Under the pieces are notes generated by a model. The model had not been told where the DNA came from, made no database searches, and saw nothing but the letters and a program-made list of their open reading frames with translations. A stretch of 64,000 nt of DNA from an uncultured Verrucomicrobiae bacterium (lineage in GTDB: Bacteria > Verrucomicrobiota > Verrucomicrobiia > Limisphaerales > J093), in contig CAWJWM010000004.1 in the NCBI GenBank assembly GCA_963846445.1, positions 59,879-123,878 on the forward strand, given 5' to 3'. Within the stretch, counting starts at the first letter, position 1; each line of letters opens with the position of its first letter. The position numbers and the translations under genes are program-made. Shown here piece by piece: positions 14,052-28,503 of this stretch.

Positions 14052-14847
14052 ATGTCTCGAGACATTTTGTCACACTTTTGCCAGAAGCTGGGAATGCGCA
14101 AGCATTCTGGTCAGCGAGAATCAACACGTGCACGTCGAAAACCCCAGCGTCCGCGGCGTCCACAGCGGCGTCGGCAAGCGCCCCACGGCTTTTTGGCTGC
14201 TTTCGATACACTCATTGCGGCGGACCAACTGCCAAGCGTGCCGCCGCGCCGGGGGCGTAAGCGGCGGGTGCCTTTGGCTGCGTTGTTGACCAGCATGGTG
14301 TTTCACTTCATGAATGGCACGGGTACCCTGGGCGAAAACTTCGCGCTCTTGTTCCGAGGGCGGCCTCAAAGACAGTGCCTGCGCCGATCGGCGCGCTCGG
14401 TTGCCGTGGCAGGTGTTCGCCGAGTTGATGGTCCGCGCCTTGCGTCCCCTGGCTGAGTTGAAGCGCCAGCCGGAAACCTTCTACCGGGGCTGGCGACTGG
14501 TTGCCCTGGACGGCACCCAGTTCAGTCTGTCCAACACCCCGGCGAACAACGCCGCGCGGCGCAAAGCCAAGAGTCGGCGGGGCCGCTCGGCCTTCGCCAA
14601 ATTCTGGGGCGGGAGCCGCTTGGTCAAGGTGCCGGTGCGCGTGAAAGGCCGACCCCGTGAGGTCAGTCACTATCTGGAGTTGCGCGAGATCTGGGTTCGG
14701 GTGGGTCGGGCCGGCCACCGCTCGCAGACCCTGCGGTTGTGGACGACGCTGCTGGATCCCAATCAAGCACCCGCCGCGGAGCTGGTCTCGCCCCGGCAAC
14801 TTCTTGCTCGTGCCGGCCGGTCAAAACGATACCCTTCACGCCAATGA
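14052..14847 (+). pseudogene. IS4-family (DDE) transposase remnant, frameshifted and internally deleted
   Basis: LAAFDTLIAADQLPSVPPRRGRKRRVPLAALLTSMVFHF; WRLVALDGTQFSL (first D region); then jumps to ...LRLWTTLLDPNQAPAAELV. Too short for an intact IS4 transposase. Confidence 0.6.
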
Positions 14848-14875
14848 CGCAGTTTGTGCGCACAGCCTCTTCCCT

Positions 14876-15020
14876 ATGAACCTCGACACAGAAAGCGGCG
14901 GTAAACCGCCGCACTCCAAACGCTGCCGCGCCGTCGTGTGCGGCCTCGAACATCGTGACGCGTCTGGAGTGCGGCGGTATACCGCCGCTTTAGGTTCCTG
15001 TCCACTGAGCAGTCCAAGAA
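14876..15020. repeat. module E palindromic repeat
   Basis: 32-nt arms AAAGCGGCGGTAAACCGCCGCACTCCAAACGC (14892-14923) and its near-perfect reverse complement (14960-14991, 30/32). Related copies at 50501-50655, ~30060-30440 and ~9340-9470. Confidence 0.8.
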
Positions 15021-15037
15021 GTAACAGGTCGCTTCCC

Positions 15038-18000
15038 ATGTGCCTCGTGCACGCCCGCGCCCTCTGTTCCGCGCTCCTCTGGCTTGCCCTCTGTCTCGTC
15101 CCGGCCGAGCCGCGCGGCCAATCGTTCTCCCTGTTCCATACAAACGCCGCCTGGCGCTACGCGAAAGGGACCGCCGAAGCCTCGCTTCCCGACCGGGCCG
15201 CCTGGCGTCAGCCGAGTTATTCCGACGCCGCCTGGAGCAGCGGCGCGGCGCCGTTCTTCTACGGTGAATCCTATCTCGCGCCGGGGACGTTGCTGAGCGA
15301 CATGCAGAACCGGTACACCACCCTGTTTCTGCGCCGCTCCTTCGTCATCACCAACGCTTCCGCCATCGAGTTGCTGGAATTGACCGCCGCGTGCGACGAC
15401 GGCTTTTTGGCCTACATCAACGGCAGCCCCGTGGTGTCCGCCAATGCGCCCGAGAGCGAGCCGTTCCACGACGCCACTGCCCCCGCCGCCGCCACCGAGC
15501 CGGTTCCGTTCCTCGGTTATCCCCTGGCGGATCCGTCGGGATTCCTGGTCGCGGGCACGAACGTGCTCGCGGTGCAGGTCTTCAATGTGTCCGCCAGCAG
15601 CAGCGACCTGGTGTTCGATGCGGCGCTGACGGCCACCTTGAAGGAATCGACCGATCCGCGCGTGGTGACGGTCACCCCGTCCCCCGAATCCGCTCTGGCC
15701 CAACTCACGGACATCACTGTCACTTTCAGCCGGGCGGTGGCCGGCGTGGATGCCGCGGACCTCTGGCTGAACGAAACCCCTTGTGCGGCGGTCAGCGGGA
15801 GCGGAACGACCTACACGTTCAGCTTTCCTCGGCCTGCCTGGGGCACGGTCCAGGTCTCATGGGATATGCGGCACGGTATCACCGACCTGGGCCAGCCGCC
15901 TACGGCGTTCAACGCCACCGGCCCGGGGGCCCGCTGGCTCTACGAACTCTACGAGCCGGGCGCCCCTAAACTCGCCGCGCTGAATCCGCCCGCCGAAGCC
16001 ACCGTCCGTCAACTTACTCAAATCGAAGTCTGGTTTGATCGGCCGGTCCAAGGGGTGGACTCGGCGGACCTCCTGATCGACGGCGCGCCCGCCTCGAGCG
16101 CCGCCGGCGCCGCAGCCGGGCCCTACGTGTTCGCGTTTGCGCCGCGCGCCGGAGGTCCGGTATCCATCGCCTGGGCCGCAGCGTGCGGCATTGTGGACCT
16201 TACACCCGAGGCGCGCCCGTTCGAGGGCGGCTCGTGGTCCTATGCGGTCGATCCCGAACTCGCTGTGCCCGATGTCATCATCAACGAGTTCATGGCCGAA
16301 AACGTGAGCGGGCTCAAGGACGAGGAAGGAGACAGTGAAGATTGGATCGAGCTCTACAACCGTGGCAACACGCCCGTGAACCTCGATGGTTGGTCGCTCA
16401 CCGACGACGCGCGCCAGCCCGGTCAATGGGTCTTTCCCGCGGTGTCCCTGCCCGCGAAACGTTATCTGGTCGTGTTTGCCTCGGGCAAAGACCGGCGCCC
16501 CACCGCCGCAGGCGCAACGCTGCACACCAACTTCAAACTCGGCCTCGCGGGCGAATACATCGGCCTCTATAACGGCGAATCCCCACGCCTGGCGGTGAAC
16601 GAAATCGCGCCCGAGTACCCCGAGCAGCGCAACGGCGTGGCATACGGGCGCGACGCGCTCGGCGCATGGCGCTACTGCGCAGCCGCGACGCCAGGCTACG
16701 CCAACAGCCCGAGTTGGATCAACGGCGTGGTCGAGCCTGCCCACTTCAGCGTTCCCCGCGGTTTCTTCGCCCGGCCCTTCAGCCTGTCGCTGGCCACCCC
16801 AACGCCCGGAGCCGCCATTCGCTACACACTGGACGGCAGCGTCCCCAGTCTCACCAACGGGATTCTCTACACGAACGTCATCGGCATCGGCACCACACGC
16901 GTGGTTCGGGCCGCCGCGTTTCGGGCGGATCGGTTGCCCTCGCGAGTCACCACCCATACCTACCTCTACAATCAGTCCGCCATGCGCCGCACCCTGCCTG
17001 CGCTCTCGCTCGTCACGGCCTCGAACCATCTCTACGGCAAGACGGGCATCATGGAGTATAACCCCCGCAACACCCTCAATCACGGAATCGCCTGGGAACG
17101 CCCGGTTTCCGTCGAGTGGCTTGCGCCCGAGGATAACGGGGGCTTCCAGATCGATTGCGGCCTACGCATTCAGGGGGGCGGGTACATCCGGAATCTCTAC
17201 AACTACCGGAGCGGTTCCATTCCCGAAAGCAAGTACTCGTTTCGACTCTACTTTCGGGGCGACTATGGCGAAGGCCGGCTCCGCCAGCCGATCTTCCCCG
17301 AGGTGCCCGCCGACTCGTTCGACACCCTCGTGCTGCGCGCCGGCATGAACGACGCGACCAACCCTTTCCTGCGCGACGAGTTCGCGCGGCGCCTCGAATC
17401 CGATGTCGGTCAGGTCTCCGCCCGCGGCACGTTCGTGAACCTGTTTCTCAACGGCGTCTACAAGGGATACTATAATCCCACCGAACGGATCGACGACGAT
17501 TTCCTCCAGACCTGGCACGGCGGCACCAATCGCTGGGACATCATCGCCATGGGCGGCGAGGTCCGCGAGGGCGACGCCATTGCGTGGAATGCCATGCGCG
17601 CTTACGCCAGCGCCAATAACCTCGCCCTTGCGCCACGATACCTCGAGATCGAACGGCGCCTCGATACAACCAACTTCGTCGAGTATCTCATCCCGCTCAT
17701 CTACGGCGATACCGACGACTGGCCCCACAACAATTGGCGGGCCGCGCGCGAGCGGACAGGCGGAGCCCGCTTCCGCTTCTATGCCTGGGATGCCGAATGG
17801 TCCTTCGGCTATAACAACGAGCCCACACATAACACCATCGCCGGCCAGCTCAGCAACCTCAGCCCGCCCTGGGGCGGCACCGAAATCCAGACGCTCTTCC
17901 TCCGCCTGAAAGCCAGCCCCGAGTTCCGTCTCCTTTTCGCCGATCGCGTGCACCGCCACTTCTTCAACGGCGGCGCGATGACAGACGAACGGCTCAAAGC

Positions 18001-20965
18001 GCGCTACGAATGGCTCAAGGCCATGATCGCCCCCGCCATTTCCGGGTTCAACAATACGATCGGAACAAGCTGGATCCCCTCCCGCCGACGTTACCTCACC
18101 AACCACTTCGCCCTCGCCGGCTTGCTCGCGTCCTCGAATGCGCCCGTCTTCAGCCAGTTTGGCGGCCCAGTCCCGCACGGGTACCGCCTCTCCCTCGCGA
18201 GCGGGGTCGGCACCATCTACTACACCACCAACGAAACCGACCCGCGCGTCCGGTTCACCGGCGCCGTCGCACCCGACGCCATCGCTTACTCCCCAGGAAC
18301 ACCCATCGTCGTCGACCGACCCCTCTTCGTCCGGGCGCGTACCCTCTCGAGCACCAATTGGAGCGCAGTGAGCGAAGCCGCCTTCCAGATCGGCGAATCC
18401 CGCTCCCCGCTCCAGATCACCGAAATCATGTACCACCCGCCCGGCGGCGAACACTACGAGTATATCGAACTCGAAAACACCAGCCCCCTGTCCCTCGACC
18501 TCAGCGGCTTTCACTTCGAAGGCATCGAGTTCCGCTTCCCCGCAGGCACCGTCGTGCCGGGCGGCGCGCGGCTGGTGCTCATCCCCGACGCCAACCCGAC
18601 CGCATTCGCCCTGCGCTACCCCAACGTCACCGTCTTCGGACGGTACGGCGGCAGCCTCTCCAACGGCGGCGAAAGACTCGCCCTCATCGATGGCGCAAAC
18701 CGCACGACCGTGTCCGTCGATTACCAGGACGCCGACGGTTGGCCCCGCGCCGCCGACGGCAGCGGCGCCTCTCTCGAAATCATCAACCCTCGCGGCGATC
18801 CCAATGACCCCGCCAACTGGCGAGCCAGCGCCTCCCCAGGCGGTTCTCCGGGCGCAGCCAACCCACAACCGGCCCCGCCACAGGTCAGACTCAACGAAAT
18901 CGCAGCCGCCCCACCCGTGGCAACCGCGCCCGGCACGCCCACCAACGATTGGTGCGAACTCCACAACGCCGGCCCCACCGACGCCGACCTCACCGGCTGG
19001 AGCCTCAGCAATGGCCGCGCGACCCAACGCCTCGTCTTTCCCCCGCTCACCTTGCCCGCCGGAGATGACCTGTTGATTCTCTGTGACAGCGAGTCCCAGC
19101 CCGCAGGTCTCCACGCCGGCTTCGCCCTGGATCAGAGCGGCGATCGCCTTTTCCTCGCAAACGCCGCTGGACAGCAGGTGGACGCCCTCGGCTTCGGCCC
19201 GCAGGCTGCGGGCTTCACACTCGGACGCGTGGGCGAAGATTCCACCTGGCAGTTGACCATGCCGACGCCCGACGCCCCCAACACCGCCGCCTCGCTGGCA
19301 TCGCCCGCCCGCCTCGTCCTCAACGAATTCCTCGCGAACTCCACGCCCGGCGCAAACGATTGGATCGAATTGTACAATCGCGATCCCCAGCTCCCAGTCG
19401 CCCTCTACGGCCTGTCGCTCGCCATCACCAACGCCCAGTTCCAAATCACCTCGCTGGGCTTCGTCGGGCCCGGCGCCCATGTCGTCCTCTACGCCGATGA
19501 ACAGCCTGGCCCCGATCACCTCGGTTTTCGTTTGCCGGCCGCGGGCAGTTACATCGCCCTCTACGACACGAACCGACTTGTGCTCGATCGTGCCAGTTAC
19601 ACCAACGCCCAGGAAGGCGTCTCGCTGGGGCGCCTGCCCGACGGCCACACCAACCTGGTCGCCTTCAGCCTCTCGCCCAGTCCGGGAACCGCCAACTACC
19701 TCCCCAACGATCGCGGTGTCCTCCTCCATGAGGTCCTGGCACGCAACCTGACCCACCACGCCCCTGCCTCGGGCCGCGTCGCCGACTGGATCGAGCTGTG
19801 CAATCCCACCAGCAACACCGTCGCCTTGTCCGGCATGAGCCTGAGCGTGAACGAACGCCACCCAGGCCAGTGGATCGTTCCGGCAGACGTGTCCCTCGAC
19901 GCAGGAAAGTGCTTGACGGTGTGGTGCGACTCGACACGCCCGGCGTCACTCACAAACGAACCGGAACTCTGCTGCGGCCAGGAGCTGACCGACTCGGGCG
20001 GCGGCGTCTACCTCTTCGACACCGAGGGCCGGCTGGTCGATGGCGTCCTCTACGGCTTCCAGTTGCCAGACCAATCCTTCGGACGGGTCCACCGCAACTG
20101 GACCCTCCTGACCCAACCGACACCGGGCGCAGCCGATGCGGCCCCAGCCGACCTGGGCGATCCGGCCAACGTGCGTCTGAACGAGTGGCTGGCAGACGGC
20201 GACGCCCACGACTGGATCGAGCTCTACAACCTCGACACCCGACCCGTCAACATGGCGGGAATGATCCTCACCGACGATCCCTCTCTCGCCGGCCAAACCA
20301 ACGGCCTCATCGGGCCTTTGACGTTCATCGACGCCCGCGGCTGGGTCCTGTGCCTCGCCGATGGGGAAGTCACGCGCGGACCGGATCACCTCCCGTTCCG
20401 CCTCGATGCACTGGGCGAGACTGTCCGCCTCTACTCGGTCGGCCGTACCCTCGTCGATAACGTCGATCTGCTCGTCCAGTTGCCCGGAGTGGCCGAAGGC
20501 CGATACCCAGATGGCAACACGAACCTCGCCCATTTCCCCTATACCGCCTCCCCGGGACTGGCCAACCGATTGGCGACCGAACCCGATGGCGATCACGACA
20601 CCCTGCCCGACGCCTGGGAGCTGGCTCACGGCCTCAACCCGCTCGCCGCCACCGGCAACGACGGACCGGACGGCGATCCCGACAACGACGGCCTGCCCAA
20701 CCGGATCGAGCGCGATCACGGCTCGAATCCGCTCGCCCAGGACCTTGTGGTGACCGGTATCGCCGTGGCCCCAGAGGGCCTTCGCCTCGCGTTCAATGCC
20801 GTCGTCGGCCAAACCTATGCCGTCGAGCAACGCGACGATTTCGAACACGCCGACTGGCAGCTCCTGACCCATTTGCTCCCTGCGCCCGCCAGCGGCATCG
20901 CCGAGATGGAATTTCCGCTCCCCCAGGACGCCCCCACCCGCTATTACCGCGTGCGCCTCCAGTGA
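15038..20965 (+). CDS. giant secreted CotH-domain protein with multiple lamin-tail (LTD) domains and a thrombospondin-type-3-like Asp-rich region
   Basis: Signal peptide MCLVHARALCSALLWLALCLVPA. CotH core YSFRLYFRGDYGEGRL...NLFLNGVYKGYYNPTERIDDDFL. About 5 LTD units (INEF.A.....DWIELYN.....L.GW.L.D). DGDPDNDGLPN near the C-terminus. Ends YYRVRLQ. Confidence 0.85.
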   Translation: MCLVHARALCSALLWLALCLVPAEPRGQSFSLFHTNAAWRYAKGTAEASLPDRAAWRQPSYSDAAWSSGAAPFFYGESYLAPGTLLSDMQNRYTTLFLRRSFVITNASAIELLELTAACDDGFLAYINGSPVVSANAPESEPFHDATAPAAATEPVPFLGYPLADPSGFLVAGTNVLAVQVFNVSASSSDLVFDAALTATLKESTDPRVVTVTPSPESALAQLTDITVTFSRAVAGVDAADLWLNETPCAAVSGSGTTYTFSFPRPAWGTVQVSWDMRHGITDLGQPPTAFNATGPGARWLYELYEPGAPKLAALNPPAEATVRQLTQIEVWFDRPVQGVDSADLLIDGAPASSAAGAAAGPYVFAFAPRAGGPVSIAWAAACGIVDLTPEARPFEGGSWSYAVDPELAVPDVIINEFMAENVSGLKDEEGDSEDWIELYNRGNTPVNLDGWSLTDDARQPGQWVFPAVSLPAKRYLVVFASGKDRRPTAAGATLHTNFKLGLAGEYIGLYNGESPRLAVNEIAPEYPEQRNGVAYGRDALGAWRYCAAATPGYANSPSWINGVVEPAHFSVPRGFFARPFSLSLATPTPGAAIRYTLDGSVPSLTNGILYTNVIGIGTTRVVRAAAFRADRLPSRVTTHTYLYNQSAMRRTLPALSLVTASNHLYGKTGIMEYNPRNTLNHGIAWERPVSVEWLAPEDNGGFQIDCGLRIQGGGYIRNLYNYRSGSIPESKYSFRLYFRGDYGEGRLRQPIFPEVPADSFDTLVLRAGMNDATNPFLRDEFARRLESDVGQVSARGTFVNLFLNGVYKGYYNPTERIDDDFLQTWHGGTNRWDIIAMGGEVREGDAIAWNAMRAYASANNLALAPRYLEIERRLDTTNFVEYLIPLIYGDTDDWPHNNWRAARERTGGARFRFYAWDAEWSFGYNNEPTHNTIAGQLSNLSPPWGGTEIQTLFLRLKASPEFRLLFADRVHRHFFNGGAMTDERLKARYEWLKAMIAPAISGFNNTIGTSWIPSRRRYLTNHFALAGLLASSNAPVFSQFGGPVPHGYRLSLASGVGTIYYTTNETDPRVRFTGAVAPDAIAYSPGTPIVVDRPLFVRARTLSSTNWSAVSEAAFQIGESRSPLQITEIMYHPPGGEHYEYIELENTSPLSLDLSGFHFEGIEFRFPAGTVVPGGARLVLIPDANPTAFALRYPNVTVFGRYGGSLSNGGERLALIDGANRTTVSVDYQDADGWPRAADGSGASLEIINPRGDPNDPANWRASASPGGSPGAANPQPAPPQVRLNEIAAAPPVATAPGTPTNDWCELHNAGPTDADLTGWSLSNGRATQRLVFPPLTLPAGDDLLILCDSESQPAGLHAGFALDQSGDRLFLANAAGQQVDALGFGPQAAGFTLGRVGEDSTWQLTMPTPDAPNTAASLASPARLVLNEFLANSTPGANDWIELYNRDPQLPVALYGLSLAITNAQFQITSLGFVGPGAHVVLYADEQPGPDHLGFRLPAAGSYIALYDTNRLVLDRASYTNAQEGVSLGRLPDGHTNLVAFSLSPSPGTANYLPNDRGVLLHEVLARNLTHHAPASGRVADWIELCNPTSNTVALSGMSLSVNERHPGQWIVPADVSLDAGKCLTVWCDSTRPASLTNEPELCCGQELTDSGGGVYLFDTEGRLVDGVLYGFQLPDQSFGRVHRNWTLLTQPTPGAADAAPADLGDPANVRLNEWLADGDAHDWIELYNLDTRPVNMAGMILTDDPSLAGQTNGLIGPLTFIDARGWVLCLADGEVTRGPDHLPFRLDALGETVRLYSVGRTLVDNVDLLVQLPGVAEGRYPDGNTNLAHFPYTASPGLANRLATEPDGDHDTLPDAWELAHGLNPLAATGNDGPDGDPDNDGLPNRIERDHGSNPLAQDLVVTGIAVAPEGLRLAFNAVVGQTYAVEQRDDFEHADWQLLTHLLPAPASGIAEMEFPLPQDAPTRYYRVRLQ

Positions 20966-20979
20966 GTTCCCAATTGACC

Positions 20980-22356
20980 ATGCTCGACGATACGATCGCA
21001 GCCCTCTCCACCCCCCTGGGCGAGGCAGCCCTCGCCGTGGTGCGCGTTTCCGGCCCCGCAGCCCTCGAAGTGGCCGACCGCTGCTTCCATCCCGCCCGCG
21101 CCTCGTCACCCAAACCCAGCCAAGCCCCCACCCACACCGTCCACTTCGGGCGGGTCCAGCACCAGGGACGATTAGCCGACGAAGTGCTGCTCACCGTCTT
21201 CCGCGCGCCCCGGTCATACACCCGCGAGCACATCGTCGAGATCTCCTGCCACGGCGGAATCCTGCCCGCCCGCCTGGTGCTCGATGCGCTCCTGGCCTGC
21301 GGCGCACGCCTGGCGGAACCGGGCGAGTTCACCAAACGGGCCTTCCTCAACGGTCGCCTCGATCTCGCACAGGCCGAGGCGGTGGCCGACCTCATCCATG
21401 CCCGCTCCGAACTCGCCCTCGCCGCCGCACACGAGCAACTCGCAGGCAAACTCTCCCACCGCGTCAACCTCCTCCGCGATGAACTGCTCGCCGCCCTCGC
21501 GCATCTCGAAGCTCAACTGGATTTCCCTGACGAAGAGATCGCCACCGATTCACACGCACAATTGCTCTCGCGGCTCCATCACGGAGTGGCAGCGATGGAT
21601 GCCCTCCTGCAAACGTCCGAGGAAGGCCAAATCCTCCGACAAGGCGTGCGCGCCGCCATCGTCGGCCGCCCCAATGTCGGCAAGTCCAGCCTCCTCAACC
21701 AAATCCTCGGATACGATCGCGCCATCGTCTCCCCTGTCCCCGGCACCACCCGCGATACCATCGAGGAATACGCCAGCGTCCGGGGTTTGCCCCTCGTCTT
21801 CATCGACACCGCGGGATTACGCCAGGCAAACGATGCTCTCGAACAGGAGGGCATCCGGCGCAGCCGCGAGACCGCCGCCCATGCCGACCTGATCCTGCAC
21901 GTGCTCGATTCCGCCGAACCCCTCACCCCGGAAGACACGCGTTACCTCCACGAGTTCGGCCCTCGGAAACGTATCCTCATCCTCAACAAGTCAGACCTGG
22001 CCCGCCGCCTCGAACTGCCCCCGCATGCCGCCGAACTCGCCCCCGCCGTCCCCGTGTCGTGCCTGACCGGCGCCGGAATCGAGACCCTCAAGGACACCCT
22101 GCAAAAGGTCATCTGGAGCGGCCATATCCGCACCGCCAGACCGGACGTAACAATCAATGCCCGTCACCAGGACGCATTGCGGCGCGCCCGCGAAGGCGCC
22201 GTCCGCGCCGCGGAATCCCTCCACCAAGACCTGCCTCTGGACGTCGTCGCTCTCGACCTGCGCATCGCCGTCAACGCCGTCGGCGAAATCGTCGGCCACA
22301 CCGCAACCGAGGACCTCCTCGACGTCGTCTTCCGCCAGTTCTGCATCGGCAAGTAA
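20980..22356 (+). CDS. mnmE: tRNA modification GTPase
   Basis: DTIAALSTPLGEAALAVVRVSGP; GRPNVGKSSLLN; DTAGLR; NKSDL; C-terminal FCIGK. An alternative GTG start lies at 20962. Confidence 0.9.
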   Translation: MLDDTIAALSTPLGEAALAVVRVSGPAALEVADRCFHPARASSPKPSQAPTHTVHFGRVQHQGRLADEVLLTVFRAPRSYTREHIVEISCHGGILPARLVLDALLACGARLAEPGEFTKRAFLNGRLDLAQAEAVADLIHARSELALAAAHEQLAGKLSHRVNLLRDELLAALAHLEAQLDFPDEEIATDSHAQLLSRLHHGVAAMDALLQTSEEGQILRQGVRAAIVGRPNVGKSSLLNQILGYDRAIVSPVPGTTRDTIEEYASVRGLPLVFIDTAGLRQANDALEQEGIRRSRETAAHADLILHVLDSAEPLTPEDTRYLHEFGPRKRILILNKSDLARRLELPPHAAELAPAVPVSCLTGAGIETLKDTLQKVIWSGHIRTARPDVTINARHQDALRRAREGAVRAAESLHQDLPLDVVALDLRIAVNAVGEIVGHTATEDLLDVVFRQFCIGK

Positions 22357-22371
22357 ACCGCCGCCGCAACG

Positions 22372-24381
22372 TCACCCGCCCCGCCTGGCCACACACACCA
22401 CGTACTCGTGCTTCACCTCGAAACCGGCGCCAGGCGGCTTGCGGCGGATCAGTCCGCTGAGAAAACGCTCGGTGAGCGCTTCCCGACGCTTCGGATCGAG
22501 CGCGTCGTAGAACGCCGTTCCCGCACCCGACTTCAGCAAATGCTCGAGCACTTCAGCCGCCGTCGCATACCGGAACACGATCTCACCCTCACCAAGCGTC
22601 TCGACCTCAAATCCCGCAGACGCCACCATCGTCCGCACCCGGTCCCCGTCGCGCGGAAAATCGAAGGCCACCCGCTTGAGCAATACAGCCGGATCTTCAG
22701 CCACCAACTCACCGAAAATCTCGAGCGGCGCGCGAGGCGAGTTCTCCCGGTGCACGATGAACGCCAGCCGGCCACCCCCGGCCAACGACCGATGCGCAGC
22801 CGCGAAAAACGGAACCAAAGGGATGTACCCCAGCACCCAACTCGAAAACACCAGATCGAACGGTCCCCCCGCCGCAAGCACCGCCAGAGCGTCGCCCACC
22901 TCGAATCGAACGTTCGATCGACCCGCCCCCATCAGCCGCCTCCGGGCGCGCGCCAACATGCCCTCCGACAGGTCCACCGCCAGCACGGTCCCTGCCCGAC
23001 ACGCAAGCTGCCCCGTGGCGTAACCGGTGCCGCACCCCGCCTCGAACACCCTCTCCTTCCCGCTCCACGCCATCCCCCCAATCAGCCGGTCCACTGGCTC
23101 CGCAGCCGCCGTCAGCCAAAATTCGTCGTAGTCACCGTGGACCCGATCGTATGCCGCCCGCAACTCCGACGCCCCTACGTCCGTGCTGCCCGCTCCGTCC
23201 CGAATCTCGAAAAACCGCGGCAAGGCGTGAACGCGCGGCAGACGCCGCTCACAAACCGCTAACGACTCCTCCGGCCCCAAAGGCAGCGCCGTCGACGAAA
23301 GCTGCCCCCCCAGCACCCGACCCACACACCCGGTTCGCGGACGGCAAAAGCAGCGGCCCATGCGCTCGAGTATCCGGTCCAGCGGTTCGCGCGTCATGTT
23401 GCCAAACGACAGCGGCACCAGGTTGCACGGACACACCTCGCCGCTGCCGTCGATGTACAGGTGCGTCAAACCCGCGCCGCAGCCAAACGCCTCCGCCGAC
23501 TCGAGATAGGCAAAACTCGACAGGATCGGCAACGCCCCGTCTCCAGCGACTTCCGCCTGGTATTCGAGAATGCGCCCGCGCTCCGCAGCCGTAAGCTGCA
23601 CCTCGGGGTGGTCCGCAAGTCGCCCGGTCGCGCTCGGCTCGAGAAGGTGGACCTCCAGCGCTCCCGCCGCCCCCGCGAACCGCAGAAAAGGAAGGAAACG
23701 TTCCCGCGGTAGAAACTCCCGAGTCGCCACCGACACAACGTACGGGTAAAGACCCGCCTCCCGCGCCACGCCCAGGGCTCGCAAAGCGGACCGGAACGCA
23801 CCCGCCCGACCCCGCAGACGATCGTGCTCCGCCTCGAACTGCGAATCGAGGCTGATGCCCACGGCGAATACCCCCTGGCGCTTCAATGCGACCGCACGTT
23901 CAGAACTCAATCCCTCCCCGGTGGTGCCAAGAATAACGCAGGAACGCGCGTCAAATGCCGCCACAATCTCCGTCAAGTCGTCCCGCAGCAGAGGTTCGCC
24001 CCCAGTCAGTGTCACCATGACCGCACCCCGATCCTGCAGTTGCGACGCCAACTCGCGCAGCGCCGCCAGCGCCATGTCCTGCTGGCCGCGCCCGGCATTG
24101 TAACAGTGCCAACATCGGAAGGGACACCGATTGGTCACCGCCAACGTCACCGAGTACAAACGTCGTGCCGCCGCCGTGCCCACCCGTCCGAATTCCTCGA
24201 CCAAGTGCTCGAACGCCCCGCTCGGATAGGGCGGGAAATGCGTGTTCACCACAAACCTGTCGCCGAACATCACCACCTTCTCCCTGGCAAAGTAGTCCTT
24301 CAGAAAGGCCGCCACACGCGGATGCAGTTTGGTGAAGGGCGGACGATTCGCAATCCGAACGAAAAACTCGTCACCACGCAT
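22372..24381 (-). CDS. radical SAM (SPASM/twitch-like) enzyme fused to a class I SAM-dependent methyltransferase
   Basis: CPFRCWHC (CxxxCxxC) with TLTGGEPLL. Cys-rich auxiliary region CGAGLTHLYIDGSGEVCPCN...CFCRPRTGC. The C-terminal third has VFEAGCGTGYATGQLA...VLAVDLSEGML...FDLVFSS. Confidence 0.75.
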   Translation of the reverse strand: MRGDEFFVRIANRPPFTKLHPRVAAFLKDYFAREKVVMFGDRFVVNTHFPPYPSGAFEHLVEEFGRVGTAAARRLYSVTLAVTNRCPFRCWHCYNAGRGQQDMALAALRELASQLQDRGAVMVTLTGGEPLLRDDLTEIVAAFDARSCVILGTTGEGLSSERAVALKRQGVFAVGISLDSQFEAEHDRLRGRAGAFRSALRALGVAREAGLYPYVVSVATREFLPRERFLPFLRFAGAAGALEVHLLEPSATGRLADHPEVQLTAAERGRILEYQAEVAGDGALPILSSFAYLESAEAFGCGAGLTHLYIDGSGEVCPCNLVPLSFGNMTREPLDRILERMGRCFCRPRTGCVGRVLGGQLSSTALPLGPEESLAVCERRLPRVHALPRFFEIRDGAGSTDVGASELRAAYDRVHGDYDEFWLTAAAEPVDRLIGGMAWSGKERVFEAGCGTGYATGQLACRAGTVLAVDLSEGMLARARRRLMGAGRSNVRFEVGDALAVLAAGGPFDLVFSSWVLGYIPLVPFFAAAHRSLAGGGRLAFIVHRENSPRAPLEIFGELVAEDPAVLLKRVAFDFPRDGDRVRTMVASAGFEVETLGEGEIVFRYATAAEVLEHLLKSGAGTAFYDALDPKRREALTERFLSGLIRRKPPGAGFEVKHEYVVCVARRGG

Positions 24382-24424
24382 GCTGTGCCTCCTCTCCCAT
24401 AGAATGTAGAGATCCGACCCCAAT

Positions 24425-25546
24425 TCACGGTGTTGCGAATCGGGCAAAGACGATCGTTTCGTATGGACTGCGGTCGCCGCGCTCGTAAAGACATGCCGCC
24501 AGACCGTTCCCAAGGTCCGCCAGATCCGAATAAGCGCTCGGCCCGCTCTCCAAAACCCGGTCTGCAGCCCAACTCCTCCCCTCGTCGCGGCTCACCCGCA
24601 CTGTCAGGTTCACCCGCGCTTTCGTGTCCGCAGGGTTCGAGAACAACAGAACCTCGCCGCACCGCCGGAGACTCGCCTGGCAGATCGGCTCGACCAGCGC
24701 CTCGTCGAATCTCTGATCGCCCCAGGTCGTCCCGGCATCCGCGCTGAAAGCGACCTGGCGGAGTCGCTTGGCCGGATCGTAATTGCGCATGTTGAGCACC
24801 AAACGCCCGTCGCGCAGTTCGGCAACCTGACACTCGTTGACCCGGTCAACAGGCGTCCGACCCCCAAGCCGCCAACTCCGCCCCTGATCGTCCGAGCAGA
24901 TCACGTGAGAATAGTAGCGCTTCGTCCCCGCCTCGATGTGATCGCAGGGGATCACCATCCGTCCTGCCCTCGAACCCCGTTCGAGTTGGATGCCAGCCCC
25001 CGGCCCCGTCGCATACCAGGTCCAGTTGGTCTGCTTCACGTCCTGGGTGATCTCCGCCGCCTTGGACCACGTCAGGCCGTCGTCCCTCGAACAACTGACA
25101 AACACCCGCCGGGTGTCCCGGCTCGTGCCGTCGATGATCTGCGCTTCGCGGTCGTCCCCGCGGTTCCAGGTCATCAACAACCATACGATCCCCGTGCCGC
25201 GGTCCACAACAGGACTCGGATTGCCGCACGTGTGGGCGTCGTCATCCCAGACCGTCTGAGGCGCGCTCCAGGTCGCCCCGTGGTCCGTCGACCGCCTCAT
25301 CAGAAGATCGATGTCGCCGCTGTCGCCCTGCCCCTGTGTTCGGCCCTCACAGAACGCCAGGACGGTTCCCTGGACGGTGACCGCCAGCGCCGGAATGCGA
25401 TAGGTGTGGTACCCCCCCTCGCCACTGGTGAACAACGCCTGTTGCCGGGTCGAGCCGGCGCCCGCACCCGCCAGGGCGTGGACGCCAACGCCCAGCACGG
25501 CCATGACCAGCATGCCGAGCACAGGGACGGTAGGATTCATGCACAT
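24425..25546 (-). CDS. exo-alpha-sialidase (GH33, BNR/Asp-box)
   Basis: Signal peptide; YRIP (FRIP motif); Asp-boxes [40 protein letters not shown]. Confidence 0.85.
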
Positions 25547-25590: not shown

Positions 25591-28303
25591 TCAGGCGATC
25601 TGCGGATGGACCTTCTCGGGGTCGACCCCGAGGTCCTTGATCGCGCGGGCGACGAGATGGCGTCCGACCTTGCCCTTTTCAGCCAGGCCGTAAAGCGTGG
25701 CGACCACGGTGGTCTCCGCGTCGATTTCGAAGAACCGACGCAGCTTTTCCCGTGTGTCGCTCCGCCCGAAGCCGTCTGTGCCCAGCGTGATCAACCCGCC
25801 CGGCACCCACGGCGCAATCATGTCGGGGACTGCCTTCATATTGTCGGACACGGCCACGAACACGCCTTTTTCCTTCTCCAGCAAAGTCTCGAGGTAGGAT
25901 TTCCTCGGCGGCTCGGTCGGGTGGAGCATGTTCCACCGCCGGGCGCGCAGGGCGTCGTGGCGGAGGAGCTTGTAGCTGGTCGCGCTCCAGACATCCGCCG
26001 AGACTTTGTAGCGTTCGGCGAGGATCTCCTGGGCGCGGAGCGCCTCGGCCAGGATCGGGCCGCTCCCCAGGAGGTGGGCTTTGGGGCGGCGCCCCTCGGG
26101 CCCCGTCTTGAACCGGTAGAGACCCTTGAGGATTCCTTCCTCGACACCCGGGGGCATGGGGGGCATCGCCTGGTTTTCATTGTACAAACAGAGGTAATAG
26201 CAGAGTTCTTCGCCCTGCTCGTACATCCGTCGGATGCCTTCTCCCACGATGACGGCCAGTTCGTAGGCGAACCCCGGGTCGTAGGTGACCAGCGACGGCA
26301 CGGTGCTGGTGAGCAGCAGGCTGTGGCCGTCCTGATGCTGCAATCCCTCGCCGTTGAGGGTGGTGCGCCCGGCCGTGGCGGCCATCAGGAACCCCTTGGC
26401 CTTGATGTCGCCCGCCAGCCAAATGAGATCGCCAATCCGCTGCGGGCCGAACATCGAATAGTAGGTGTAGAAGGGAATCAGGTTCACCCCATGCGAGGCG
26501 TAAGCCGTGCCGGCCGCGATGAACGAGGCCATCGCCCCCGCCTCCGTGATCCCTTCTTCGAGGATCTGGCCTTGTACGGACTCGTGGTAGTACAAGAGCG
26601 ACTTGAGATCCACCGGCTCGTAAAGCTGGCCTTTGGGCGAGTAGATGCCGATCTCGCGGAACAGCGCGTCCATGCCAAACGTGCGCGCCTCGTCGGGGAT
26701 GATCGGGACGATCCGAGGGCCAATCCCCTTGTGCCGCAAGAGCAGGCTCAGCAAACGCACAAACGCCATCGTCGTCGACACCGCCATCTTGCCCGAACCC
26801 CGCGCGAACTCGGCGTAGAACTCCGGCTTCGGAGCCTCGATCGGCAGCGCTTTCGTCCGGCGCTCGGGAACGAACCCGCCCAAGGCCTGGCGCCGATCGA
26901 GCAGGTAGACGGTCTCCGGGCTGTCCGCCGGCGGACGGTAGAACGGTGTCTCCGCGATCTCCTCGTCCCGGATCGGCACGGCGAAACGGGCGCGGAACTC
27001 GCGGAGTTCCTTCTCGTTCATCTTCTTCTGCTGGTGCGAAATGTTGCGGCCTTCGCCGGCTTCGCCCAACCCGTAGCCCTTGACGGTCTTGGCCAGGATG
27101 ACCGAGGGCGCGCCCTGATGCGTGACCGCGGACTGGTAAGCGGCATACACCTTGACCGGATCATGACCGCCGCGCAGCAAGCGGTGAATTTGGTTGTCGG
27201 TCAAGGGATTGACCAGTTCGAGCAGTTCCGGGTACTTGCCGAAGAAGTGCCGACGCGTGTAACTCCCGGGCTCGACCGAGTATTTCTGATAATCGCCGTC
27301 GAGCGCTTCCTCCATGCGTTTGGCCAGCAGACCCGTTCGGTCCGCCGCCAGCAGCGGATCCCAATCCGAGCCCCAGATGACCTTGATCACGTTCCAACCC
27401 GCGCCCCGAAAAGCGGCTTCCAGCTCCTGGATGATCTTCCCATTGCCGCGCACGGGCCCGTCGAGACGCTGCAGATTGCAGTTCACCACCCAGATCAGAT
27501 TGTCGAGATGCTCGCGGGCGGCCAGAGTCAGGGAACCGAGCGTTTCCGGCTCGTCCGACTCGCCGTCGCCCACGAAGCACCACACTTTGGGCTCGGGACC
27601 CTGGACCAGCCCGCGGGCTTGGAGGTAACGATTGAACCGCGCCTGGTAGATCGACAGGATCGGCCCCAGGCCCATCGAGACCGTGGGGAACTGCCAGAAC
27701 CCCGGCATCAGATAGGGGTGCGGATAGGACGAAAGCCCCCCGCCCTCGGCCAGTTCCTGGCGGAAGTTCTGCAAGTGCCGCTCATCGAGCCGCCGTTCGA
27801 GAAACGCCCGCGCGTAGATCCCGGGAGACGCGTGCCCCTGGAAGAAGACCATGTCCGCCGACTGGCCCGTCGCCGGCGCCGCGAAAGAAATGGTTGAACC
27901 CGACTTCATACAACGTGGCGCTCGATGCGTACGTCGAGATGTGGCCCCCCAAACCGTTATGCTGGCGATTCGCATTGACCACCATCGCCATCGCGTTCCA
28001 CCGGATATAGCTCTTGATTCGCTTCTCGAGATTCCGATCGCCGGGCAGGGCCGGCTGACGTTCGGGCGGGATCGTATTGATGTAAGGCGTGCTCGTGGTG
28101 CGCGGGGCGGCGAGGCCTCGCTCCCGCAGACGCCCCAACATCCCGTTCAGGAACCGGTGGACCCGATCCGGGCGCTCGCTCTGGAGGGCCAGTCCGAGCA
28201 GATGCTCGTGGGCATCCAACCACTCTCGCGCCGTGGCAGGCGCCGCGGCAGAGTTCGCGCCTCCCGTCGGCGAGGCGATCGTATCGGAGGAATGCTGTTC
28301 CAT
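25591..28303 (-). CDS. aceE: pyruvate dehydrogenase E1 component, homodimeric type; one frameshift near 27870
   Basis: [22 protein letters not shown]; [16 protein letters not shown]; GDGESDEPE; [14 protein letters not shown]; the long ~900-aa architecture. Confidence 0.85.
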
Positions 28304-28503
28304 AGCGTTCACAAAGGGCGCATGACATTTCCGGCCTCGGGCAGATCGGCCAAGTCCGCCGCGGCTGACGCTGTCTGTCCTTGCCACCAAAGACGCACGG
28401 CCGTCACGCGAGTGTTGTCCCTGTCCCTCGCTCGTTTCAAGGATTCTGTTGGTGGCTGTTCGTGGCTTGCCGCGGCTGCGGCTTCCGTGTATGCCTGCCG
28501 GCC

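Follow-up and report, generated by a model that had tools for sequence, protein, structure and literature searches.

Within a 64,000-nucleotide stretch of the genome of an uncultured Verrucomicrobiae bacterium (contig CAWJWM010000004.1, positions 59,879 to 123,878; hereafter the window) lies a gene that joins a radical S-adenosylmethionine (SAM) enzyme to a class I SAM methyltransferase in a single polypeptide of 669 residues (Table 1). The plus-strand translation of the gene's interval contains stops throughout and the coding strand is the minus strand, where the longest open reading frame (ORF) covers 22372-24513 and would, from a TTG at 24513, encode 713 residues. As GGGAGAGGAGG lies 6 nucleotides (nt) upstream of the ATG at 24381, and all homologues examined start at MRGDEFF, we take this ATG as the real start, so that the single intact 669-residue frame originally called at this place stands. 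Searches of the protein database gave more than 100 fused homologues of full length and 60-78% identity, under generic names only, and an AlphaFold2 model with 52 homologues as input is confident throughout (mean predicted local distance difference test, pLDDT, 90.2; predicted template modelling score, pTM, 0.84); hence, the fusion is a true gene and no chance ORF of GC-rich DNA. Pfam domain searches likewise recovered the three parts that had been read from the letters alone, namely a radical SAM core, an auxiliary-cluster region and a methyltransferase. The protein has cysteines at positions 86, 90, 93, 148, 301, 317, 319, 344, 346, 352, 377, 450, 461 and 663, ends in ...KHEYVVCVARRGG, and shows neither a transmembrane stretch nor an obvious membrane-binding segment; as a family these proteins are acidic (median isoelectric point, pI, 6.1, and 5.3 for the methyltransferase half) and rich in conserved aromatic residues. 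Taken together, its sequence and model are best explained by an enzyme that is soluble, self-sufficient and bifunctional, with SAM used at both of its active sites.

Table 1. Coordinates of the fusion gene, its predicted parts and its immediate neighbours in the window
Feature	Position	Strand	Basis or remark
Radical SAM (twitch)-class I methyltransferase fusion gene	22372..24381	minus	669 codons plus TGA stop at 22372-22374
Shine-Dalgarno sequence GGGAGAGGAGG	24388..24398	minus	6 nt upstream of ATG 24381; read from the sequence
N-terminal extension, residues 1-75	24157..24381	minus	Predicted two helices, beta-hairpin, helix (AlphaFold2 model); median pI 9.6
Radical SAM core, residues 76-280	23542..24156	minus	PF04055 and invariant columns
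Twitch (half-SPASM) auxiliary-cluster region and linker, residues 281-395	23197..23541	minus	PF13186 and invariant cysteines
Class I SAM methyltransferase and C-terminal cap, residues 396-669	22375..23196	minus	Pfam Methyltransf_25/11/31
BNR-repeat (sialidase-like) gene	24425..25546	minus	Pfam BNR_2, 127.8 bits; TGA at 24427-24425
mnmE	20962..22356	plus	Convergent with the fusion, stops 15 nt apart; NCBIfam MnmE equivalog passes cut-off

Membership of the radical SAM superfamily was judged by a CxxxCxxC motif, a GGE-type motif and a Pfam score that exceeds the gathering threshold, and the N-terminal half shows all of these: PF04055 (Radical_SAM) matches residues 82-216 with 68.1 bits against a cut-off of 29.5, and both the cysteine motif C86-x3-C90-x2-C93 (24103-24126) and the SAM-binding motif G127-G-E-P-L (GGEPL, 23989-24003) are invariant in 52 homologues. 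By its sequence this half is a radical SAM enzyme. The extension that precedes the core, originally put at about 100 residues, proved to be shorter, at about 75. It has no Pfam match, including none to PqqD or to a recognition element (RRE) of the pathways of peptides made on the ribosome and modified after translation (RiPPs), and it carries the family motif N46-x-x-F-P-P-x-P-S-x-A-F57 at 24211-24255, where FVVNTHFPPYPSGAF represents residues 43-57. This motif is kept in both fused and non-fused relatives, even at 30% identity, and the model predicts that the family-specific extension packs against the radical SAM half.

A full SPASM domain is defined by the seven-cysteine motif Cx9-15Gx4C ... 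Cx2Cx5Cx3C ... C with two auxiliary clusters, and a twitch domain by a C-terminal beta-hairpin whose Cx9-15Gx4C ligates a single auxiliary Fe-S cluster. The original prediction saw a Cys-rich auxiliary-cluster region of SPASM type behind the core; such a region is present, but with three or four conserved cysteines it represents only the front half of the motif. PF13186 (SPASM) matches residues 301-339 with 24.7 bits, just over its cut-off, and covers only profile positions 1-44 of 67. The relevant residues are C301-x12-G314-x4-C319 (23425-23481), C352 (23326-23328) and C377 (23251-23253), of which all four cysteines are invariant in the 52 close fused homologues and only C301, C319 and C352 stay so in the wider family (non-fused forms and fused forms at 36-40% identity). 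The window protein does have C344-x-C346-x5-C352, but C344 and C346 are not conserved, and the CxxCx5Cx3C block of the SPASM motif is absent. The predicted hairpin strands (307-310 and 315-317) align with the twitch hairpin of SkfB. As judged from the cysteines and the model, this region is a twitch (half-SPASM) and not a full SPASM domain. Because the CxxCx5Cx3C block is missing only one auxiliary Fe-S cluster is expected, with C301, C319 and C352 as its predicted ligands along with C377 in the close subfamily; by analogy to MoaA, whose auxiliary cluster has an open iron site, this cluster may also leave an iron site open.

For the C-terminal half we considered the hallmarks of class I methyltransferases, i.e. 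a Rossmann-type fold, a GxGxG motif I, an acidic motif II residue and a motif III aspartate. Pfam models Methyltransf_25 (61.4 bits) and Methyltransf_11 (57.9 bits), both above cut-off, and Methyltransf_31 match at residues 442-548, and motif I (E447-AGCGTG-453, 23023-23043), D470 (22972-22974) and D497 are all invariant. Foldseek comparisons of the model retrieved 3ccf, BioC, Tam and JHAMT (TM-score 0.72-0.80) and, further down and weakly, CmoM. A complete GxGxG methyltransferase domain, as had been claimed, is thus borne out by Pfam, motifs and fold, and sequence and model alike identify this half as a class I SAM methyltransferase. It additionally displays the family-specific motifs WVLGYIP, FDFP, LKSGAGTA (22513-22536) and HxYV as well as the family-specific H658. 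Its nearest NCBIfam matches are BioC, CpaM and BchM/ChlM, in that order and all below cut-off, and its fold neighbours other than 3ccf (BioC, Tam, JHAMT and CmoM) are carboxyl O-methyltransferases. The half accordingly resembles the BioC/Tam/JHAMT structural type in sequence and model, with likenesses too generic to point to one acceptor atom.

An exhaustive search of 1.8 billion cluster representatives recovered 257 below E=1e-30. These include fused forms down to 37% identity, about 100 non-fused relatives of 400-440 residues that span extension, core and twitch, and two fusions of reverse order with the methyltransferase first (P0144 and P0189), an arrangement carried by Lentisphaerae. The named genomes with the fusion are metagenome-assembled genomes (MAGs) of Verrucomicrobiota, Planctomycetota, Elusimicrobiota, Acidobacteriota, Latescibacterota and Syntrophales, to which the protein-database search adds Sumerlaeota; across seven phyla the full-length homologues show 54-78% identity. 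The nearest relatives of the window fusion are from Verrucomicrobiota, and its own organism recurs at 99% identity in an activated-sludge metagenome (locus L044). No cultured host was found among the homologues and no phage-borne copy in IMG/VR, and the family is known only from uncultured anaerobic bacteria. Literature searches returned no description of a radical SAM-methyltransferase fusion family of this kind. To study gene context we assembled a first set of 31 loci, to which a metagenome scan added 80, for a total of 112 loci in 73 independent groups, about 60 of them with usable flanks.

The two halves are also associated outside the fused gene. In a locus from Kiritimatiellia (L034) the methyltransferase has a gene of its own, which overlaps the radical SAM gene at the latter's start, and at L040:6552-9269 and L041:67-2784 the order is methyltransferase (196 residues), methyltransferase (280 residues) and radical SAM enzyme, with overlaps of 4 nt. 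The methyltransferases of these other arrangements align end to end with the methyltransferase domain of the window protein, including the LKSGAG and VxHxYV motifs. The same pair thus occurs as a radical SAM-methyltransferase fusion, as a methyltransferase-radical SAM fusion and as overlapping adjacent genes, and finding one pair in three arrangements is a textbook sign of obligate functional coupling. We infer from these sequences, with good support, that the halves act in sequence on one substrate. The earlier argument from the fusion itself to a coupled radical and methyl-transfer reaction was therefore sound, and the three gene arrangements strengthen it. The non-fused module of L040 and L041 lies downstream of a glycosyltransferase/PglD-like cluster, and its tail faces that of a betaine/choline ABC transporter of OpuAC type. 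A decayed fusion was found in a Verrucomicrobia MAG (L035:687-2352), where the radical SAM half is intact (430 residues, 73% identity) and a separate ORF of 128 residues behind it represents only the methyltransferase C-terminal cap, the SAM-binding core having been lost.

We then compared both halves with characterized systems. The radical half is closest to SkfB, followed by BlsE, SuiB, MoaA and PqqE; the SkfB match is supported by sequence (E 4e-14), profile (116 bits) and fold (E 9e-17) at about 22% identity. SkfB, BtrN, MoaA and BlsE are alike in having a CxxxCxxC core followed by a C-terminal beta-hairpin with Cx9-15Gx4C and one auxiliary cluster. However, the N-terminus of SkfB binds a peptide, whereas the window protein has its own NxxFPPxPSxAF extension there and a fused methyltransferase besides, and the fusion differs from all four in being found without a precursor peptide gene or a sugar or GTP pathway context. 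Several other memberships could be rejected: 1) NirJ2, AhbD and AhbC score 96.6, 92.1 and 72.4 bits against equivalog cut-offs of 500-650. 2) Tes/Mss (NF045702, cut-off 450 bits) is not among the best 25 of the 85 NCBIfam matches of the window protein, and the relative P0135 reaches 44.5 bits. 3) The cobalamin-dependent class B methylases are excluded by the lack of a PF02310 match and by an N-terminal element of 75 residues that is unrelated to theirs. 4) RiPP radical SAM maturases are distinguished by an RRE/PqqD-like domain and/or a co-located precursor peptide with tailoring or export genes; the window protein has no PqqD Pfam match, no conserved short ORF was seen beside the gene and no such partners recur in the 73 groups, although a distant precursor gene may exist. 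5) Anaerobic sulfatase maturases show no specific similarity, and although sulfatase neighbors occur, the genomes are sulfatase-rich. PDB entry 8wm2 could not be identified from the literature.

On the methyltransferase side, BioC, Tam and JHAMT share the fold and the C-terminal cap, and the BioC match covers most of the domain. BioC itself (TIGR02072) was rejected at 55.5 bits against an equivalog cut-off of 184.95; it lacks the family motifs WVLGYIP, LKSGAGTA and HxYV and is not fused to a radical SAM enzyme. CMAS (PF02353) was not detected in the window protein at E<=0.01, and a homologue from locus L042 gives 22.9 bits against a cut-off of 27. ArsM models score 25-32 bits, and the four catalytic cysteines of ArsM are absent, the methyltransferase half having only C450, C461 and C663. 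The 81.7-bit match to Mad2 of MADS (PADLOC PDLC04134), an N6-adenine DNA methyltransferase encoded within the eight-gene mad operon, covers just the Rossmann core (residues 430-602); the (D/N)PP(Y/F) motif is absent, motif IV reading SSWVLGYIP, and no mad genes are nearby. For neither half, nor for any relative scored, did an NCBIfam equivalog approach its cut-off. Thus, in line with the original prediction, the protein lies outside every characterized subfamily that could be tested.

Pairs of radical SAM enzymes and methyltransferases are known from other pathways. ArsL/ArsM (arsinothricin) and ArsS/ArsM (arsenosugar) are comparable as radical SAM plus SAM methyltransferase pathways without further partners; however, ArsL is defined (NF040542) by a C-terminal arsenite-binding RCCLKC tail and a CxxxCxxC near residue 194, and the window protein has no such tail and its CxxxCxxC at 86-93. 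In chlorophyll ring E formation (BchM, then BchE) and in CC-1065 cyclopropanation (C10P/C10Q) a class I methyltransferase and a radical SAM enzyme act on adjacent atoms of one substrate. BchE is a B12-dependent class B enzyme and C10P a HemN-like class C enzyme; the fusion protein has no B12-binding or HemN Pfam match and its hosts are not among known phototrophs or CC-1065-type producers. MnmL and MnmM were rejected because PF16199 (Radical_SAM_C) and PF06962, their respective Pfam markers, were undetected, a twitch is present, the protein is acidic and there is no linkage to mnm genes outside the window's own genome. They belong to a different radical SAM family (Elp3-like, with no twitch) and a different methyltransferase family from those of the fusion. 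Nevertheless, MnmL-MnmM (YtqA-YtqB) offer a parallel, as this radical SAM enzyme and class I methyltransferase act sequentially on one substrate in the formation of 5-methylaminomethyl-2-thiouridine (mnm5s2U) in tRNA, are sometimes fused, and constitute an anaerobic replacement of an O2-dependent step (PMC13228596). The fatty-acid-synthesis clusters of anammox Planctomycetes pair unassigned genes for class I methyltransferases (AmxMT1, which binds acyl carrier protein, ACP) and radical SAM enzymes (PMC9821293, PMC13459092), and this pairing is the nearest conceptual precedent; AmxMT1 (8HD2) is, however, not among the top structural neighbors of our methyltransferase half.

In the window, 43 nt separate the stop of the sialidase-like gene from the ATG of the fusion, exactly as first reported, and the two genes are probably co-transcribed in this genome. 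The co-orientation of the fusion behind aceE and the sialidase is real, as all three are on the minus strand, but its supposed functional relevance is not upheld since the adjacency is unconserved: the sialidase adjoins the fusion only in the same organism (L044) and is absent from all other fused loci, aceE is a common neighbor only among the closest relatives, and neither mnmE nor the sialidase was found near the fusion in loci L001-L043. Hence, we discount aceE, sialidase and mnmE as functional context. The aceE gene (25591-28315, minus strand) is split over two frames, with the junction at about 27872-28044; relative to the intact orthologue of L006, residues 8-155 are in frame 28315-27872 and residues 95-913 in 28044-25597. 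It is on account of this split, which by its sequence is a frameshift, a pseudogene or an assembly error, that the longest aceE ORF matches the aceE profile only from position 122. At 14657-20965 on the plus strand, overlapping the start of mnmE by 4 nt, is an ORF of 2102 residues with six lamin-tail domains, a CotH kinase domain, Fn3-associated/CHB_HEX_C modules and a bacterial TSP3 repeat, and with no NCBIfam match. The GC skew is strongly negative (-0.12 to -0.23) at 16-24 kb, reaches its cumulative minimum near 28-30 kb and is positive thereafter. Genes for MnmE are often origin-proximal, and the skew turn together with mnmE may mark a replication origin or a strand-switch point.

Across the 73 independent groups the fusion is mostly free-standing. 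Neighbors were called with a GC3-GC2 coding score; the top conserved neighbor clusters of the first 31 loci were all shadow ORFs inside the fusion gene, and in a Pfam census of 101 neighbors each family was limited to two at most. Among adjacent genes of known function the most frequent, present in 5 of the 73 groups, encodes LplT-Aas, which combines a major facilitator superfamily (MFS) transporter, a PlsC-type acyltransferase and an AMP-binding domain. The copy in L102 scores 1285.7 bits against the NF006386 (acyl-[ACP]-phospholipid O-acyltransferase) cut-off of 1221, and in L085, L094 and L115 the gene is on the same strand as the fusion, 11-63 nt away. As the fusion proteins of these loci are only 59-67% identical and gene order varies between them, the association does not represent one inherited block, and a rough Poisson estimate sets P at about 2e-6 to 6e-5. 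A PlsA/Ger-like ether-lipid enzyme adjoins the fusion in two groups. The divergent fused member P0340 (L042), which is 37% identical and keeps the family motifs, is gene 10 of a tight operon whose products also include a thioester reductase, a lipid kinase of the YegS family, CdsA, a Pcs-like CDP-alcohol transferase and a methyltransferase of TIGR00027. Among non-fused relatives the closest (P0130, 49% identity, L033:2578-5104) lies 44 nt downstream of an ankyrin-PP-binding (carrier-protein) gene, and in a census of operon partners in 44 groups the most frequent families are MFS_1, AMP-binding, DUF2339 (a large protein of the membrane), MarR and Acyltransferase.

Other neighbors were noted as well. 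The commonest neighbor overall, in six independent groups, encodes a secreted protein of about 380 residues with an internal duplication and no Pfam or NCBIfam match, often on the same strand and 38-184 nt off (e.g. L068:1992-3149, L093:8827-9948 and L113:9382-9963). In three independent groups the gene for the DUF2339 membrane protein is co-oriented with the fusion at a distance of 100-144 nt (L089:12126-15323, L068:5455-7818, L118:7521-9857), and DUF3999 occurs twice among the operon partners. A B12-binding radical SAM gene, with HpnJ, HpnR, BchE and a 'lipid biosynthesis B12/radical SAM' family as its best, weak matches, lies about 1.2 kb downstream of the fusion in three independent groups (e.g. 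L074:7189-8658). Between the lipid genes and the fusion of L042 (5072-7642) are four tandem paralogues of 187-258 residues with signal-peptide-like N-termini, the motifs GPGAGHAYA and VGxSVDKYN, a C-terminal phenylalanine and no family match; they may be outer-membrane or secreted proteins tied to the lipid operon. In L033 a TetR regulator is encoded upstream of the ankyrin-PP-binding/P0130 pair and an ARPP-1 protein downstream.

These contexts lead us to suggest, tentatively and with less than even confidence, that the substrate is the fatty-acyl chain of a membrane lipid, or an acyl-ACP or lysophospholipid precursor thereof, which the enzyme would activate by radical chemistry and methylate in anaerobes. 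The recurrent neighbors of known function are membrane-lipid genes, and the methyltransferase fold is nearest to BioC, whose substrate is acyl-ACP. A lipid substrate would also explain a free-standing, horizontally mobile gene because such substrates exist in every cell. In its proposed role the fusion would resemble Tes/Mss, Gms, GrsA/B, HpnH and Jaw5, which are concerned with radical activation of inert lipid carbons in anaerobes, although none of these five kinds is joined to a class I methyltransferase, and its architecture is not seen in any lipid radical SAM enzyme covered by reviews up to 2025 (Tes, Mss, Gms, GrsA/B, Gmm, Cds, HpnH/J/P/R and Jaw5). Mechanistically, cleavage of SAM by the [4Fe-4S] cluster that C86/C90/C93 would ligate is expected to give the 5'-deoxyadenosyl radical. 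One may speculate that the radical half then takes a hydrogen from an unactivated acyl carbon, that the auxiliary cluster accepts an electron from the resulting intermediate to yield a desaturation or another C-H functionalization, and that the methyltransferase half would use a second SAM to methylate the newly nucleophilic position or a carboxyl group, the conceivable outcome being that strict anaerobes could arrive at a methylated lipid independently of oxygen.

Several observations weigh against this proposal. A lipid gene is near the fusion in only about 8 of the approximately 60 groups with usable flanks and nowhere in the 64 kb of the window, and the strongest operon evidence, from L042, concerns a member of just 37% identity. 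The methyltransferase is no member of the CMAS/cyclopropane fatty acid synthase family, its best score of 22.9 bits being under the cut-off, and its nearest structural relatives methylate carboxylates and not alkenes. The protein shows no transmembrane or evident membrane-binding segment. Its radical half is only weakly like the lipid enzyme Tes, and this within the core alone; Tes, Mss and Gms have a full SPASM domain and two auxiliary clusters, and the GDGT-MAS structure matches in the core only, with 66 bits. There is no cultured member, and to our knowledge no twitch enzyme offers a direct precedent for the proposed chemistry. A bolder version, by which the family is the missing oxygen-independent methyl-branching enzyme of bacterial membrane lipids that desaturates an unactivated acyl or alkyl carbon and then methylates it, is accordingly a long shot.

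The likeness of the methyltransferase fold to carboxyl O-methyltransferases could instead point to a carboxylate-bearing soluble small molecule or cofactor, such as a tetrapyrrole side chain or an organic acid, that is esterified by the methyltransferase and then oxidized, decarboxylated or cyclized alongside by the radical half, by analogy with BchM-then-BchE or AhbD/NirJ; we regard this as doubtful. The top NCBIfam matches of the radical SAM half are indeed NirJ2, AhbD and AhbC, with matches of this type being stronger in the non-fused P0146 (153 and 145 bits), and those of the methyltransferase half are BioC, CpaM and BchM/ChlM, in agreement with BioC, Tam, JHAMT and CmoM as Foldseek neighbors. 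Furthermore, the three-cysteine auxiliary cluster could bind substrate as in MoaA, and a ubiquitous metabolite as substrate fits a free-standing gene. However, these matches are 4-6 fold under the curated cut-offs and barely over generic SPASM/Rossmann similarity, tetrapyrrole or cofactor genes are not recurrent in the 73 groups, and no riboswitch was found in 17 loci, where only tRNAs passed the Rfam gathering thresholds. SkfB being the best PDB match by sequence, profile and fold, with SuiB and PqqE also among the fold neighbors, one might alternatively envisage a maturase of a RiPP or protein encoded elsewhere, in which the twitch enzyme cross-links or epimerizes like SkfB and the methyltransferase acts like PIMT-like enzymes. 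PIMT-like methyltransferases operate in lanthipeptide and graspetide pathways, and the methyltransferase half has weak matches to PIMT, FxLD, graspetide and daptide methyltransferases. We nonetheless consider this unlikely. The flanks contain no conserved short ORF, which agrees with the original failure to see a precursor-like gene nearby, nor does one lie beside the gene in any independent locus set: the largest candidate cluster is Arg/Pro-rich shadow-frame noise and the rest come from near-identical genomes or represent a Flp-pilin-like peptide. No recurrent peptidase, transporter or PqqD/RRE partner was found in the locus groups; Pfam gives no PqqD/RRE match for the N-terminal extension, whose helices and strands are predicted to follow one another in an order that does not fit the RRE fold. 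Identities of 54-78% across seven phyla are, moreover, unusual for RiPP tailoring enzymes. The peptide or cofactor maturase role implied by the first reading of the DNA thus found no support.

Sugars, nucleotide-sugars or envelope glycans, which could undergo radical dehydrogenation, decarboxylation or deamination as with BtrN, BlsE and DesII and subsequent O- or N-methylation, appear improbable as substrates. BlsE and BtrN are twitch-type neighbors, the non-fused module of L040 ends a glycosyltransferase/PglD-like/CapK-like cluster, and the host lineages are polysaccharide specialists with sulfatases and glycosidases common in the flanks. Yet in genomes such as these chance would be expected to place sulfatases and glycosidases nearby, genes of sugar pathways are not recurrent beside the fused gene, and the methyltransferase fold is nearest to carboxyl O-methyltransferases and not to sugar methyltransferases. 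Least credible is an anaerobic tRNA or rRNA modification analogous to MnmC or to the MnmL-MnmM fusion, in which the radical SAM half would convert 5-carboxymethylaminomethyluridine (cmnm5U) to 5-aminomethyluridine (nm5U) and the methyltransferase would then form 5-methylaminomethyluridine (mnm5U). Pairing and fusion of a radical SAM enzyme and a methyltransferase are known for this same logic (PMC13228596), the window gene stands tail to tail with mnmE at a distance of 15 nt, and the tRNA carboxyl methyltransferase CmoM is a weak fold neighbor. Nevertheless, MnmL is from a different radical SAM family (IPR005911, Elp3-like; PMC13228596) that has no SPASM or twitch domain, the mnmE of the window is convergent and has no counterpart near the fusion in L001-L043, and the acidic character of the family is atypical of RNA-binding enzymes.

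Much is known of radical SAM enzymes and of class I methyltransferases separately; the present pairing of a twitch radical SAM enzyme, with its own N-terminal element, and a BioC-like methyltransferase defines a large and strongly conserved family without a named member, a cultured host or an assigned substrate. As a single gene appears to encode the whole reaction, the family offers a clean target for enzyme discovery. If the methyl-branching version were true, it would explain mid-chain or extra methyl branches that are orphans at present, among them those in branched tetraether and ether lipids, for uncultured anaerobes of the Acidobacteriota, Verrucomicrobiota and Planctomycetota and their neighbors in activated sludge, groundwater and sediment. 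If the link to lipids holds more generally, the family would represent a new oxygen-free decoration of membrane lipids in uncultured anaerobes, and it could help to name the makers of lipid biomarkers whose biosynthetic genes are unidentified. Should that link fail, the family would still mark a two-step SAM-dependent transformation that is spread over at least seven phyla.

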